From Thermotogota bacterium (GTDB lineage Bacteria; Thermotogota; Thermotogae; Petrotogales; Petrotogaceae), in assembly GCA_051748045.1 (NCBI GenBank), contig JBNJGY010000049.1, positions 1 to 13,036 of the forward strand: a stretch of 13,036 nucleotides of DNA, written 5' to 3'. The position numbers and the translations under genes are program-made. Below the pieces are notes generated by a model. That model was not told where the DNA came from, did not search any database, and saw only the letters and a program-made list of their open reading frames with translations. Shown here piece after piece: positions 6,866 through 13,036 of this stretch. The first letter of the stretch is position 1. Every line of letters starts with the position of its first letter.

Positions 6866-7474
6866 TTAATCTTTTAAGGAAGCTATTGCTAAAAAAAGTA
6901 TAGGTGTAGTTAATAATGAAAGCATATAAATTTTTTGGTAATTTAGATCTCCCCCTAAAAGGTATATATAAAACAACCCCATAGAAAGAAAAAAATAACT
7001 AAAAAATCCTAGAATTTTAGATTTTATTGCTATTATAGTAGCTAGTAATAATGCTCCTGGTAAAATGTATTCTTGTGGAATTGAAAATCCATGAGAACTA
7101 AAAGTAAATAAAAATAATAAAAGAGTTATAGTATATCCTGTTCGTTTAATTAAAATATCTCTTCCTCTTAAATAAAAGGTTCTATAAAGATTTATATATA
7201 TCAAAGGAATAAGTATAAAAATCTCTAAAAAAACAGGTTTTATATCTATTTGTAGAGAAACACTCACGACAGCTATGGACATTATTATATAAAGTGAATG
7301 TATAGATGATTTTCTATAAGCTTCTTTTCCTCCATTATCCAATTTTTTGAATTTAATATGTTCCATATAAAAAATTATAAAAAACAATAAAAAATAATAA
7401 CCACTAATATTTAGTAAGAAAATAATCCCAATTATCCCCACTAATTCAAGAAGAGACCATGTTCTAAATTTCAT
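6866..7474 (-). CDS. Hypothetical multi-pass membrane protein (202 aa)
   Basis: Hydrophobic throughout. Start moved from 7519 to ATG 7474 (MKFRTW) because GCGGGGTG RBS is directly upstream. No family confidently recognised. Confidence 0.75.
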   Translation of the reverse strand: MKFRTWSLLELVGIIGIIFLLNISGYYFLLFFIIFYMEHIKFKKLDNGGKEAYRKSSIHSLYIIMSIAVVSVSLQIDIKPVFLEIFILIPLIYINLYRTFYLRGRDILIKRTGYTITLLLFLFTFSSHGFSIPQEYILPGALLLATIIAIKSKILGFFSYFFLSMGLFYIYLLGGDLNYQKIYMLSLLTTPILFLAIASLKD

Positions 7475-7495
7475 TTTTTCACCCCGCATAATAAA

Positions 7496-7527
7496 TGTAA
7501 AATATGAGGCTTGCTCCACATTTTACA
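7496..7527. promoter_or_regulatory. Imperfect inverted repeat (candidate operator or leader hairpin)
   Basis: TGTAAAATATG-N10-CACATTTTACA, with 10 of 11 positions paired, about 20 nt upstream of the membrane-protein start. Confidence 0.45.
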
Positions 7528-9750: not shown

Positions 9751-9778
9751 TAATTAAATTTTAACTTTCAACCGATAA
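9751..9778 (+). promoter_or_regulatory. Candidate sigma-28 (FliA/SigD) promoter
   Basis: ACCGATAA at 9771-9778 (7/8 match to GCCGATAA), with TAAT at 9751-9754 16 nt upstream (consensus TAAA-N15/16). Confidence 0.5.
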
Positions 9779-9802
9779 CATTAACACATGGAGGTGAAAG
9801 TT

Positions 9803-10165
9803 ATGAGAATTGATAGAATCAATGAAATAGAAAGAAAATATTCTGAGAGAACTCAGCCTGTTACAAATAACAGAGTAGAAAGTGTAAAAGATGATTATAA
9901 ACAATTTGATGAACATCTCCGAAGAGAAATGACAGAAGAAGAAAAAGAAAAAAACAAAAAAAATAAAAATAAAAGAAAATCTATGATTTTTTATCCTGAT
10001 ACTTTGGTTAGAAATGATATAGATTATAATAGAGTAATGTATACAAATCTTTCTGATAAAAAACAAAAACATGTAATAAAAAAAGATACATTTGAACTTT
10101 TTGCTGAAAGAAACAGCAAAATTAAAAAAGAGTCTAGAATCAAGCCAAGATATTTTAGAGGATAA
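9803..10165 (+). CDS. Hypothetical basic, charged protein (120 aa)
   Basis: Strong RBS GGAGGTGA at 9790-9797 supports ATG 9803 (MRIDRINEI) rather than 9788. It has its own terminator downstream. Confidence 0.75.
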   Translation: MRIDRINEIERKYSERTQPVTNNRVESVKDDYKQFDEHLRREMTEEEKEKNKKNKNKRKSMIFYPDTLVRNDIDYNRVMYTNLSDKKQKHVIKKDTFELFAERNSKIKKESRIKPRYFRG

Positions 10166-10166
10166 T

Positions 10167-10197
10167 AGCAAAACACCCTGACAGGGTGTTTTGTTTT
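10167..10197 (+). terminator. Intrinsic terminator
   Basis: CAAAACACCCTG-A-CAGGGTGTTTTG followed by TTTT, immediately after the stop at 10165. Confidence 0.88.
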
Positions 10198-10220: not shown

Positions 10221-11093
10221 ATGAATCCATTCAAGCAAATTAAAATTAGATATGTTTTTTTGGTAATACTAGGTTATATAGTTTTAAATATTTTTTTAGG
10301 TGATTATTTTGATGTTGAAAATAATATTTTAGGTGCTCTTTTAACACAAATTGGTTACCAATTGATTATATTTTTTTGGATGTTTTATGAGATGATAAAA
10401 GTTAATAAAACTGCTGACTTTAAAATACGGCATTTTTTTGAAAAAGATTATACTGAAAAAGACTTAACAACCGTTTATTTATTTTTACTATTTATAGCGT
10501 TGTTTTTTAGCAACATCATTTCTACTTCTATCATACAGTTAATGCCAGAATTTATACAAAATTATTTTGAAAGAATAATGAATGAGTACCAGGATGCAGT
10601 TGTTTTTTCACAGAACGGTTCTTTTCTGATTTCAACATTACAGTTTTTATCGATAGTTATCTTAGCACCTATTGTAGAAGAATTTTTTTATAGAGGATTT
10701 TTAATAAATAGGCTTTCATTGAAATTCAACTTGAGATGGGCTGTTTTAATATCGACAGTTTTGTTTACATTGGGCCATGGAGACATTATCGGAAGTTTTA
10801 TAAAAGGATATGCTTTTTCAATTTTATATATAAAAACTAAAAGTTTAAAATTACCTATTATTTTTCATGTTTTGAATAATTTAATAGCTTTTACCTTATT
10901 CAAAACTTTTGATTCTGTTGATGTTGAGAATCTCTATATTCCTAATTCTGTAGCGGTAATAATGTCTTTGCTAATTGTTATATCTTTTCCACTACTTATT
11001 CATTTTTTCTATATGTATAGAGTTAAAGATGAAAAAGTTTCACCATTTGAAAAAATATTTAATGGAGTTGATGAAAATGTACAAGATGAATAA
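10221..11093 (+). CDS. CPBP family (Abi / type II CAAX) intramembrane metalloprotease
   Basis: Motifs APIVEEFFYRG (EExxxR), FTLGH (FxxxH) and HVLNN (HxxxN). Multiple TM helices. Confidence 0.93.
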   Translation: MNPFKQIKIRYVFLVILGYIVLNIFLGDYFDVENNILGALLTQIGYQLIIFFWMFYEMIKVNKTADFKIRHFFEKDYTEKDLTTVYLFLLFIALFFSNIISTSIIQLMPEFIQNYFERIMNEYQDAVVFSQNGSFLISTLQFLSIVILAPIVEEFFYRGFLINRLSLKFNLRWAVLISTVLFTLGHGDIIGSFIKGYAFSILYIKTKSLKLPIIFHVLNNLIAFTLFKTFDSVDVENLYIPNSVAVIMSLLIVISFPLLIHFFYMYRVKDEKVSPFEKIFNGVDENVQDE

Positions 11094-12351
11094 ATCTGGT
11101 AATTTTGAATATATAAACACAAAAGCGAATAACAATAAATACATAACCCCTATGATTACTGATTCACATTTACATGTTATTAGTTATGGAGAAAAATTAT
11201 CTAATCCTGATCTAGAATTTAAAAGTATTTTAGAAATAAAGAATATAATTCAGAATAAATTAAAAGACAATCCAAAAAAACTTATTTTAAGAGGATGGTC
11301 AGAACCAGAAGTACCAAAAAAACAATTTTTAGATTCAATAGATAAGAATATTCCAATGATGATGGTTAGAAGATGTGGACATGTGGCAACAGTTAATTCT
11401 AAAATGCTAGAGAAAATTGATTTTTCTGGGTACGAAAGATATATTGATGAAAGAAATGGGATCATTTATGAACAAGCTTTAGAAATTGTTTATGGAGAAG
11501 TTGGTTATTACCAAAATATAGAAAAGTCTTTTAAAAAAGCCGAAGAAAAATTAATGGAAGATGGTTATGGTTTTATACATTCAGAAGATATACACGGAAT
11601 AACAAAAGATGATTTACCATTTAAAGATTCTAAAATTAAAGTTTATGAAAAAATAGCTGTAAATAATTTGCAAGAATTAAAGTTGTTTAAAAATCAAAAA
11701 TATTTTGAAGAATATAATTCAGTAAAAGTTTATACAGATGGGTCTTTTGGTGGCTGGACAGCTTTGATGAAAGATAATTATTCGGATAAAGCAACAAAAG
11801 GTAAAAAAGTATGGAATGATGAGGATTTAAAAAAGGTTCTCGAATTTTGTGAAGAAGAAAAACTACATTTGGCAATGCATGCTATTGGAGATGGAGCAGT
11901 TGAACAAATATTAAATATAGCAGAAGAAGTAAAACCAAAAGGGATGCATAGAATAATTCATTCTGCTGTTCTGCATGATAATCAATTAGACTTAATAAAA
12001 AAACACAATATAATCCTTGATATGCAACCCTCTTTTATCCCTTCAGATGAACCTATTTTAAAAAATAGATTAGGTGAAAGAACAAAAATAGCTTACAGAT
12101 TTAAAGATATTATAGATAAGAATATAAATTTATTTTTATCATCTGACGCTCCTGTTGAGGAGCCTGCTTGGATTAGATATTTCAATATTCTATCAAAACA
12201 GAATATTTCAAACAAAGATATATTAAACACTTTGATTTTTGCTCCTGAAATAATTGATGGTTTCGATAGAATAAAAGACATGGATGAAAGAAGATTAGTT
12301 TTTGAAGAAAACCCATTTGATAGAATAACAATACCAAATGTTGAAAAATAA
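11077..12351 (+). CDS. Amidohydrolase family 3 (YtcJ-like) metal-dependent hydrolase
   Basis: Motifs DSHLH, RGW, RRCGHVATVNS, K.YTDGSFG..TA, HAIGD.A, RIIH, MQP and SSDAPVE. Start probably ATG 11077 (GGAG at 11064-11067; 11071 and 11086 are alternatives), not 10975. Confidence 0.9.
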   Translation: MYKMNKSGNFEYINTKANNNKYITPMITDSHLHVISYGEKLSNPDLEFKSILEIKNIIQNKLKDNPKKLILRGWSEPEVPKKQFLDSIDKNIPMMMVRRCGHVATVNSKMLEKIDFSGYERYIDERNGIIYEQALEIVYGEVGYYQNIEKSFKKAEEKLMEDGYGFIHSEDIHGITKDDLPFKDSKIKVYEKIAVNNLQELKLFKNQKYFEEYNSVKVYTDGSFGGWTALMKDNYSDKATKGKKVWNDEDLKKVLEFCEEEKLHLAMHAIGDGAVEQILNIAEEVKPKGMHRIIHSAVLHDNQLDLIKKHNIILDMQPSFIPSDEPILKNRLGERTKIAYRFKDIIDKNINLFLSSDAPVEEPAWIRYFNILSKQNISNKDILNTLIFAPEIIDGFDRIKDMDERRLVFEENPFDRITIPNVEK

Positions 12352-12384
12352 AAAATAGCTTCCTGATTTCAGGAAGCTATTTTT
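12351..12384. terminator. Bidirectional intrinsic terminator
   Basis: AAAAATAGCTTCCTG-ATTT-CAGGAAGCTATTTTT directly after the amidohydrolase stop. Confidence 0.9.
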
Positions 12385-12541
12385 CTAATATTTCAAATAT
12401 GAGGGATGTTCTAAGGGTGATTATTACGGGCGGAGTTACACTCAACATTATATTACATCCAATAACTTAAAAAAAACTTATAAAAATCATTCCATAATTT
12501 TTGTTGGAGGTTGGGTAGCAAATTTTAATTTAGCTAAAAAC

Positions 12542-12570
12542 GAGATTTCTCCACGTTGGTCGAAATGACA
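12542..12570 (-). repeat. TGTC-tagged REP-like palindrome, short form, copy R1
   Basis: Minus strand TGTC-ATTTC-GA-C-CAACGT-G-GA-GAAAT-CTC; 24/29 identical to 12934-12962. Confidence 0.8.
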
Positions 12571-12585
12571 TGTTTAAAATTTGTT

Positions 12586-12606
12586 GTTGGATGTTGGAGG
12601 ATGGAG
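12586..12606 (+). repeat. Heptamer tandem repeat (GTTGGAN-like x3)
   Basis: GTTGGAT GTTGGAG GATGGAG. Related runs at 12503-12516 and 12772-12792. Confidence 0.6.
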
Positions 12607-12615
12607 GAAAAAATT

Positions 12616-12702
12616 GTTAAAAATAATCACAGCTGTCATTCTGAGAGAGTCACAAAGTGACGAACCGAAGAACCTCATCAGTAAATTTGCAAAGCAAATT
12701 AA
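12616..12702 (+). repeat. Long direct-repeat unit 1, containing the long-form TGTC-tagged palindrome U1 (12634-12676)
   Basis: Shares GTTAAAAATA, AGCTGTCATT, CATCAGTAAATTT and AAATTAA blocks with 12805-12893 (offset 189). Confidence 0.85.
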
Positions 12703-12804
12703 TAAGTAATTTAAAATAATAAATAGCGTTCTTCACAAGATCGAAAAAGTAGAAAATGTAAAACATTTTCTGTTGAAGGTTTATAGTTGGAAGTAAAAAA
12801 CATG

Positions 12805-12893
12805 GTTAAAAATAGCCATAGCTGTCATTTCGACTAAGATGCGTAGCATCGCATGGAGGAATCCCATCAGTAAATTTCACAAAGTGAAATTAA
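12805..12893 (+). repeat. Long direct-repeat unit 2, containing the long-form TGTC-tagged palindrome U2 (12823-12865)
   Basis: TGTC-ATTTC-GA-C-TAA-[GATGC-GTA-GCATC]-GCAT-G-GA-GGAAT-CCC, collinear with unit 1. Confidence 0.85.
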
Positions 12894-12933
12894 GCTTTTA
12901 AAACCATTCAATTTTCTTCGAAAATTTACTGAA

Positions 12934-12962
12934 GAGATGTCTCGACCTTGCTCGACATGACA
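12934..12962 (-). repeat. TGTC-tagged REP-like palindrome, short form, copy R2
   Basis: Minus strand TGTC-ATGTC-GA-G-CAAGGT-C-GA-GACAT-CTC, inverted relative to U2. Confidence 0.8.
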
Positions 12963-13036
12963 TACGCAACAGTTTTCAATACATGTTTTTACTAACAATA
13001 ATAAAAATTTTTGTACTATAATTCTCAATAGTTCAT

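Follow-up and report, generated by a model that had tools for sequence, protein, structure and literature searches.

The four TGTC-tagged palindromes close to the end of contig JBNJGY010000049.1, from a Thermotogota bacterium of the Petrotogaceae, are probably copies of a CGTC/TGTC-tagged repetitive extragenic palindrome (REP) of the Ssn-related-motif class, in a variant with opposed G.A mismatches that is orphaned in this genome and persists inside a mosaic repeat. The window we analysed is the whole of this contig (C49, 13,036 nt, complete), one of the 158 that make up a draft genome of 2.41 Mb and 28% G+C, referred to below as G000. The palindromes are labelled R1, U1, U2 and R2 in the order of their positions, and Ssn stands for a small GIY-YIG nuclease known from other bacteria. 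The core of this finding is already explained in print, by the element class (2013) and by its nuclease partner (2025), and its novelty is smaller than a preliminary description of this DNA had held.

All four elements are present on the strands and at the coordinates which that description gave, with paired stems and opposed GA/GA dinucleotides as claimed there (Table 1). The closing pair inside the GA dinucleotides (N/N') does flip, being C-G, G-C, C-G and G-C in R1, U1, U2 and R2; R1 and R2 differ at five aligned positions, four of which form two compensated pairs (7/24 and 12/19) and one of which lies in the loop; and U1 and U2 are identical at 24 of 43 positions. The internal G.A loop is symmetric (2x2), and in R2 both GA dinucleotides stand in a CGAG context. 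U1 and U2 carry an inner hairpin each (GTCAC-AAA-GTGAC and ATGCG...CGCAT, respectively), and a U1-type copy with a perfect AGAAT stem arm was found elsewhere in the genome (C90:84-126). The GA/GA opposition, which had been called invariant, is kept in 71 copies in the genome that fit the full grammar, but GA faces TA in 13 additional copies, and a congener has a single copy (L041) with GAC opposite GTC, which is fully Watson–Crick.

Copies of these hairpins were detected throughout the genome. The 11-mers TGTCATTTCGA and TGTCATGTCGA, taken from the 5' halves, occur 32 and 26 times, compared with 1.5 and 0.6 occurrences expected from base composition, and a covariance model built from the four copies only returned 56 genome matches at E ≤ 1, 52 of them new; this was the check that the preliminary description had proposed. 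We then took a census of candidates defined by a tag, a stem starting with A and then C or T, and a complementary 5-nt arm, and scored each for both GA dinucleotides: these were present in 71 of 1064 candidates with a TGTC tag, compared with 1 of 259 with CGTC, 2 of 780 with AGTC and 6 of 400 with GGTC. Such copy numbers exclude chance. TGTC is the tag of all four window elements and of the 71 full-grammar copies, and CGTC that of one copy. Among the 71, the stem has five Watson–Crick pairs in 55 copies, one mismatch in 13 and one G.T pair in 3; N/N' is G-C in 33, C-G in 29, A-T in 4 and unpaired in 5; and the tail begins with C in 65 (CTC in 28, CTA in 14, CCC in 11, CTG in 5, others in 13). 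Two length classes make up the census, with 32 copies of 28–30 nt, whose loops are 3–5 nt, and 39 copies of 37–43 nt, which have 12–18 nt inside the closing pair and, in some types, an inner hairpin. Neighbouring hairpins no more than 150 nt apart are inverted in 22 of 24 pairs, and convergent pairs, the commonest arrangement, account for 17 of the 24.

The stems covary across the family. In alignment A2, 98.1% of stem cells are paired compared with 79.1% after shuffling, none of 500 shuffles reaching the observed value, and slid controls give 14–53%; four of the five stem pairs vary on both sides. These figures overstate the independence of the copies, which are related to one another and were aligned to fit the structure. 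Sounder evidence of covariation than the percentages is the count of distinct paired stem types, of which there are about nine: ATTTC/GAAAT, ATGTC/GACAT, ACCCT/AGGGT, ATTCT/AGAAT, ATATT/AATAT, ATCTC/GAGAT, ACCTT/AAGGT, ACCTC/GAGGT and ATCCT/AGGAT. Stem position 1 is A-T in 49 of 52 cells, and position 2 is T-A in 45 and C-G in 7. Across 40 relatives, the four-copy covariance model matched two congeners only, apart from one weak hit, a scan that says little about the class since the model is largely sequence-specific; a scan with a degenerate IUPAC grammar was more useful and is described below.

In form, the elements match the CGTC-tagged REP superfamily, which agrees with the YGTC-tagged REP kind named in the preliminary description. 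The accessible part of the survey that defined this superfamily reports tag variants TGTC and CCTC, A-T at stem positions 1–2, stems of 8–9 bp, loops of 4–5 nt, a 3-nt tail (CCA), inverted dimers, no linked transposase and a host range of five phyla, Thermotogae among them (Di Nocera 2013, PMC3733652). The same part gives Kosmotoga olearia and Mesotoga prima as hosts of the CGTC-3 family, notes odd loops in two Thermotogae hosts, and states that repeats with more than one stem mismatch were discarded (PMC3733652). The hairpins of G000 share with these REPs the TGTC tag, a 3-nt tail, inverted dimers, an intergenic location, a Thermotogae host and the lack of a linked transposase. The stem agrees in part: A-T predominates at position 1 and the helix has eight positions, but two of them (6–7) are G.A/A.G, which leaves six standard pairs. 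The loops of the 28–30-nt copies roughly agree with the published length and those of the other 39 of the 71 copies are longer, and the tail is CYC or CTA rather than CCA. We did not find the G.A-mismatch form described in the literature searched, though it may be drawn in the figures or supplements of Di Nocera 2013.

The nuclease partner of the class has been characterized in Neisseria. As reported in the accessible part of Chenal 2025 (PMC11893778), SsnA is a 94-aa single-domain GIY-YIG protein that binds the NTS hairpin, made up of a CGTC tag, the dRS3 palindrome and a following C. It cuts single-stranded DNA (ssDNA) only, a few bases upstream of the hairpin and on that strand only, and not RNA. 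The C that follows the palindrome contributes most to binding, cutting is governed by the 3 nt in front of the palindrome, a changed palindrome loses Ssn activity even when the hairpin is kept, ssn genes are typically bracketed by their own motifs, and Supplementary Data 4 marks an ssnA homologue for Mesotoga infera, M. prima and Kosmotoga olearia (PMC11893778). The tag and the tail C are the most conserved positions of the hairpins in G000, which fits these determinants of binding and cutting. Like the Ssn-related motifs (SRM; NTS in Neisseria), the hairpins are oriented, have an HGTC tag before and a C after the palindrome, start their stems with A-T/Y, and occur in tens to hundreds of clustered intergenic copies; unlike them, they have G.A oppositions in place of Watson–Crick pairs at stem positions 6–7, AT-rich stems, and loops that reach 20 nt and contain inner hairpins.

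In other genomes, small GIY-YIG genes stand between hairpins that follow this grammar. We scanned the pattern TGTCAY-NNN-GA...GA-NNN-RT-CY over 151 Thermotogota genomes and found 56 matches in G000 (0 in a reversed-pattern control), 17 and 7 in two congeners, and 64, 131, 20, 56, 28, 20 and 418 in seven genomes of other genera, with 0–11 in the remaining 141, mostly near the controls. The genome with 418 matches, G131, which is a single contig, has arrays of GA/GA hairpins immediately on either side of a small GIY-YIG gene, eight upstream of it and six downstream; an IS21-family element that carries rve and IstB genes splits the gene (L076 1495-1584 and L080 1504-1695). A search with the C-terminal piece of this gene matched 9 of the 151 genomes, and eight of these carry the family, with six intact genes (96–99 aa), one decayed by stops, and the split gene of G131. 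YGTC hairpins lie beside the gene in all eight and on both sides in seven; none accompanies the ninth match, a GIY-YIG gene of G006 that is YhbQ-like and encodes 111 aa. In G123, six YGTC hairpins lie in the gene locus, of which two close upstream and one close downstream are GA/GA, and the gene copy is the one decayed by stops, near its 3' end. The intact proteins are single-domain and of a size comparable to the 94-aa SsnA, and match the Pfam GIY-YIG domain, by which they were assigned, at 59–63 bits; they are candidate members of the Ssn family cd10448 of CDD.

The same association extends beyond the phylum. A profile of five intact Thermotogota genes found 580 relatives in a species-genome collection, and we analysed the flanks of the best 80 of these 580 loci, which come from Bacteroidota, Bacillota, Pseudomonadota, Patescibacteria, Spirochaetota and others. 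At least one YGTC hairpin lies within 600 nt of the gene in 74 of the 80 and on both sides in 53, giving 215 hairpins compared with 3 for a reversed tag. Helix positions 6–7 of the 215 are GA/TC (Watson–Crick) in 89, GA/GA in 42, GG/CC in 20 and CG/CG in 17. The 5' GA is widely kept and its partner is either complementary or a purine mismatch, with few intermediates, which suggests that GA/GA is a maintained alternative rather than a product of decay. GA/GA hairpins flank 13 of the 80 loci; that at L142, beside a small GIY-YIG gene in a metagenome-assembled genome of the Clostridia, equals R2 except in the loop, and those at L124, L164 and L120 are, outside the loop, almost base-for-base like other subfamilies of G000. 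On a protein tree of the flanked genes (98 columns, few supported branches), the GA/GA label changes 4 times compared with 12.3 in shuffles (0/500), and the G131 and G123 genes fall outside the main GA/GA group. The idea that the fold, and not the sequence, is being maintained does not survive this comparison, since sequence conservation between phyla extends to the tag, the 5' GA and the tail C, and even to entire hairpins. A nuclease acting in trans from a gene outside the window had also been proposed, with GIY-YIG listed among the types to look for, and that idea gains from the small GIY-YIG genes bracketed by same-grammar hairpins in other genomes but lacks a partner gene found in G000 itself.

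We suggest that the TGTC strand, when single-stranded, can fold into a hairpin with an unpaired 5' TGTC, a 5-bp stem starting with A-T, and two opposed G.A/A.G mismatches, followed by an S-S closing pair (S, G or C), a loop that is free or replaced by an inner hairpin, and a tail, again unpaired, starting with C. In other bacteria, small single-domain Ssn enzymes bind hairpins of this kind and cut just upstream of them, in ssDNA only. For the class as a whole, the mechanism with the best support is that an Ssn-type nuclease recognises the folded TGTC strand as ssDNA. For the G.A variant and for this genome it is an inference, in which an Ssn-type enzyme would recognise the variant as well and the two G.A oppositions would form sheared pairs. 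As to the route by which the copies spread, we infer that the units which carry the hairpins reached ~80 copies probably by duplication or recombination of whole units, or else in a past burst when the nuclease was present. The hairpins in G000 are called orphans because no ssn gene was found there.

Several observations weigh against this explanation. The Ssn mechanism covers recognition and not multiplication. Binding and cutting by Ssn are published only for perfect-palindrome forms. The degenerate pattern published for SRMs recovers 0 of the 71 copies and 0 of the four window elements, and its sole match in the genome is an unrelated site on contig C82. The proposed fold is the minimum-energy structure for R1 only, whether as DNA or as RNA, and no tag-strand fold of the four elements beats its own shuffles in either form: of 16 folds (RNA and DNA, both strands), 15 have z-scores between +0.85 and -1.54, and the one outlier (-2.12) belongs to the opposite strand of U2, whose fold is not the proposed one. 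As for the enzyme, a six-frame search of G000 with the Pfam GIY-YIG domain found only a 574-aa frame and a 280-aa protein and no ssn-like gene, tblastn with the pieces of the G131 gene gave a best E of 0.086, and the profile of the five intact Thermotogota genes gave a best E of 0.09. An ssn gene was not found in the congeners G001 and G002 or in G003, G042 and G052 either, and of the nine Thermotogota genomes with at least 17 grammar matches, two have the gene, broken in both. The absence of ssn from G000 is nevertheless not proven, as the assembly breaks at repeats and a 300-bp gene bracketed by arrays could be missed.

The two GIY-YIG matches in G000 were looked at individually. The size of the 574-aa frame suggests UvrC. 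The 280-aa protein (contig C1, L003 946-1788) matches GIY-YIG weakly at its C-terminus (22.9 bits; cut-off 22.6), and its long N-terminal part matches no family; it is not Ssn-type. A four-helix-bundle protein had been named among the candidate partners, and the corresponding family, PF05635, was not found in G000.

The setting of the hairpins raises the question of what has been multiplying. Three of the four (U1, U2 and R2) are modules of a mosaic intergenic repeat unit of ~130 nt, so that the earlier picture of an array of four holds for the number of hairpins but not for their setting, R1 lying in a different host palindrome. The unit consists of a GGA-rich TTGGAGG-like tract, an A-rich tract, ~10 variable bases, the TGTC hairpin, the linker WTCAGTAAATTT and a second hairpin, in that order. 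Iterated nhmmer searches found 81 copies in the genome, 79 of them intergenic by a crude call of open reading frames (ORFs). A spacer module with the box AATAATAAATAG, which has 31 occurrences in the genome, flanks many units, before or after, and accounts for a periodicity of ~190 nt in the window. The minus strand after R1 reads GTTTTTAGCTAAATTAAAATTTGC; the flanks of its host recur near-exactly, one or two letters off, at C43:9784 and C16:16679, and the genome has two exact occurrences of the 24-letter right flank. Because R1 sits in a different host that is shared with two other loci, the hairpin is not bound to one carrier.

A possible but rather doubtful alternative is that the multiplying thing is this mosaic unit, in the manner of miniature inverted-repeat transposable elements, neisserial intergenic mosaic elements (NIMEs) or bacterial interspersed mosaic elements (BIMEs), with the hairpin as a passenger, spread by some transposase or by recombination, and with no role for Ssn in this lineage. 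The likeness to NIMEs in Neisseria and BIMEs in E. coli lies in a short tagged hairpin interleaved with other modules in large mosaic intergenic regions, and such interleaving is noted for Neisseria CGTC-1 in the accessible part of PMC3733652; the partner modules here differ, being a GGA-rich tract, an A-rich tract and a second covarying hairpin. Most hairpins (55 of 71) lie inside a unit match, the flanks, second hairpin and GGA-rich tract are conserved along with them, and convergent unit pairs form palindromes of ~240 nt. The order of modules varies between G000 and its congener G001, and three orthologous spacers compared between the two differ in modules: the TGTC hairpin of G000 is missing from G001 in all three, and these spacers are rearranged mosaics in which neither a clean insertion or excision boundary nor a target duplication was seen. 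The searches for an ssn gene in G000 also found none. On the other hand, the hairpin occurs in a second, unrelated host (that of R1 and two further loci), 16 of the 71 copies lie outside any unit, and the grammar is far older and wider than the unit, being found in other Thermotogota families and in other phyla, always with tag and tail; nor did we see terminal inverted repeats with target duplications or a clean empty site. We favour hairpins of the Ssn-related-motif class that are embedded in mosaic units.

Further features of the mosaic regions were observed. The small second hairpin of the unit covaries too, as CAC-AAA-GTG, GC-AAA-GC or TC-GWA-GA, behind the invariant linker TCAGTAAATTT. 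In G001 (L055 1420-1450), another perfect hairpin, TTCCCTCTTGCGCAAGAGGGAA, stands where the orthologous spot in G000 has a TGTC unit, between the same flanking modules, and from these sequences it looks as if hairpin cassettes are exchanged inside a conserved intergenic frame. A tract of ~180 nt of CAACCA/CAGCAA-type hexamers lies directly upstream of a gene start in the G001 orthologue of the L048 spacer (L059 2250-2430) and could be an unstructured C/A-rich leader or an expanding microsatellite; the orthologous place in G000 has CAAC-rich modules that are the reverse strand of the unit's GGA-rich TTGG tract.

We also considered an extension of the Ssn-related-motif explanation, namely that the G.A/G.A hairpin, in which a tandem purine mismatch takes the place of the GA:TC Watson–Crick pairs, forms a distinct ssDNA-nuclease specificity class read by particular Ssn lineages, and that the nuclease restrains its own sites so that its loss or breakage lets the hairpins multiply. 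The Thermotogota rich in hairpins have no gene or a split or decayed one, and the genomes with an intact gene have few GA/GA matches (1–10), a pattern that would fit restraint. Taken as a whole, we regard this combined proposal as unlikely.

That the hairpins act as RNA, being transcribed with their neighbours to terminate transcripts, stabilise them or bind proteins, with the tandem G.A pairs as an RNA motif, seems to us improbable. The units are intergenic, and many begin 15–50 nt past the 3' end of a gene; some stems contain G.T pairs; and the other strand would read TC/TC, so one strand matters. Contigs from a run on an RNA library cover 12850-12903 and 12908-12962, a weak hint, since DNA is possible in such libraries and the sequencing-run data, being contigs only, carry no strand, transcript ends or expression level. 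However, the units occur in both orientations, and the 33 unit clusters with genes on both sides are divergent in 11, co-directional in 16 and convergent in 6 cases, compared with 227, 1630 and 221 of 2078 spacers genome-wide; they are thus enriched between divergent genes and have no fixed relation to transcription. Stem mismatches other than G.T are as frequent as G.T pairs (5 versus 5 cells), the RNA folds do not stand above shuffles, and the 3-nt bulge of a kink-turn is lacking. An Rfam scan of 12000-13036 at E ≤ 10 gave no match over the elements, its only matches falling on the terminator at 12351-12384 and the end of the preceding gene. In addition, SsnA does not bind RNA, according to the accessible part of Chenal 2025 (PMC11893778).

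Still less probable is that the hairpins are substrates of a REP-associated tyrosine transposase (RAYT; Y1 HUH), as the GTAG REPs are. Those REPs and the REPINs resemble the present elements in being short tagged palindromes read on one strand, in forming inverted pairs and in having a small enzyme gene bracketed by its own repeats, and G000 does contain one RAYT-like gene, on contig C82, that falls just short of the NCBIfam REP_Tyr_transpos cut-off (79.2 against 80 bits) and matches Pfam Y1_Tnp. Yet the tag here is TGTC, the C82 gene is flanked by inverted copies of a different repeat, GGGTCGGACC (4 genome copies), with no TGTC hairpin near, and there is no Y1_Tnp match in G131, the genome richest in hairpins with 418 copies, or in G001; the accessible part of Di Nocera 2013 (PMC3733652) likewise reports no CGTC repeats flanking tyrosine transposase genes. 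The ends of IS200/IS605 insertion sequences and of their gene-less derivatives (PATEs) share with these hairpins the property of being imperfect hairpins recognised on one DNA strand, but no such element with these ends was found in the genome (TnpB was not searched for), where the sole Y1 gene is the RAYT-like one with other flanks. That gene (L001 1444-2214, 256 aa) has GGGTCGGACC at ~1328 and ~2300, and a 117-aa ORF without a family match lies just upstream of it.

The notion that the units encode small peptides, or that the pattern is due to chance, has a negligible probability: although upstream of U1 there are a GGAGG tract and a TTG, and one frame stays open for 33 codons through unit A, the hairpins have lengths (28, 29, 37, 38 and 43 nt) that differ by non-multiples of three, a start codon is absent from many copies, no frame is favoured (at least 25 codons are open in 47, 33 and 44 of 76 copies per frame), and chance is excluded by the copy numbers.

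If the hairpins belong to the Ssn-related motifs, as we consider probable, the G.A form has been under-counted in surveys, being missed by the published search pattern, and yet it brackets ssn genes in several phyla. Thermotogota genomes hold up to ~400 copies, and an intact nuclease gene tends to be missing where hairpins are abundant, which is relevant to the question whether Ssn spreads its sites or restrains them. Ssn enzymes are under development as site-specific ssDNA cutters, for which new site specificities could be useful, and because Thermotogota include many thermophiles, some of the intact homologues in this phylum might be heat-stable. For annotation, the repeats matter in that they break assemblies and yield spurious small ORFs.

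Table 1. Features of the window from its last gene to the contig end (bits, covariance model built from the four hairpins; E, nhmmer).
Feature	Position	Strand	Details
Amidohydrolase-family gene	10975-12351		Last gene before the repeats
Terminator-like inverted repeat	12351-12384		Perfect, 16 bp; after the last gene
Host palindrome carrying R1	12515-12585	-	Arms ~12518-12528 and ~12573-12583 (GCAAATTTTAA / TTAAAATTTG) enclose the hairpin
R1 hairpin, 29 nt	12542-12570	-	TGTC ATTTC GA C CAACGT G GA GAAAT CTC; stem ATTTC/GAAAT, opposed GA/GA, closing pair C-G; 37.3 bits
Mosaic unit A	12586-12702	+	E 2.5e-17; TTGGAGG tract, A-rich tract, U1, linker TCAGTAAATTT, second hairpin
U1 hairpin, 43 nt	12634-12676	+	Stem ATTCT/AGAAC, one A.C mismatch; 52 bits
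Second hairpin of unit A	12684-12700	+	AATTTGC-AAA-GCAAATT
Spacer module	12703-12771	+	AATAATAAATAG box and variable hairpin 12751-12771; precedes each unit
Mosaic unit B	12772-12902	+	Best full-length copy; E 1.6e-36
U2 hairpin, 43 nt	12823-12865	+	Stem ATTTC/GGAAT, one G.T wobble; 51.8 bits
Second hairpin of unit B	12873-12891	+	AATTTCAC-AAA-GTGAAATT
Mosaic unit C	12910-12998	-	Convergent with unit B; E 9e-11; second hairpin 12910-12926
R2 hairpin, 29 nt	12934-12962	-	Stem ATGTC/GACAT; 37.9 bits
Repeated intergenic module	13004-13036	+	Cut by the contig end; TTGTACTATAAT at 13011-13022

Repetitive, non-coding DNA fills the contig from the terminator to its end, which comes 74 nt past R2. Such an ending is common in this assembly, with 21 of the 71 hairpins lying within 300 nt of a contig end and 17 of the 158 contigs having a copy within 400 nt of one. 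In the DNA sequencing run that is the probable source of the assembly (0.82 of sampled words present), read depth is ~4–8 on the gene and climbs to several hundred over the repeats, which fits a multi-copy family; the 19 further sequencing-run rows with any part of the stretch contain at most 0.11 of sampled words each. The module at the very end of the contig is also found in L008 (~1680-1691), in L048 (~1062-1073) and in the congener G001. Its 12-mer TTGTACTATAAT, which has 6 copies in the genome, includes a perfect -10-like TATAAT, and judging by this motif the module could be a portable promoter.

Elsewhere in the window, the listed ORFs 10221-11093 (an Rce1-like protease) and 10975-12351 (the amidohydrolase) overlap by 119 nt, and the TTG start of the latter is probably called too far upstream. 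Two ORFs have no Pfam match, one of 217 aa at 6866-7519 on the minus strand and one of 125 aa on the plus strand within 9761-10171, where an ORF of 136 aa lies on the opposite strand.

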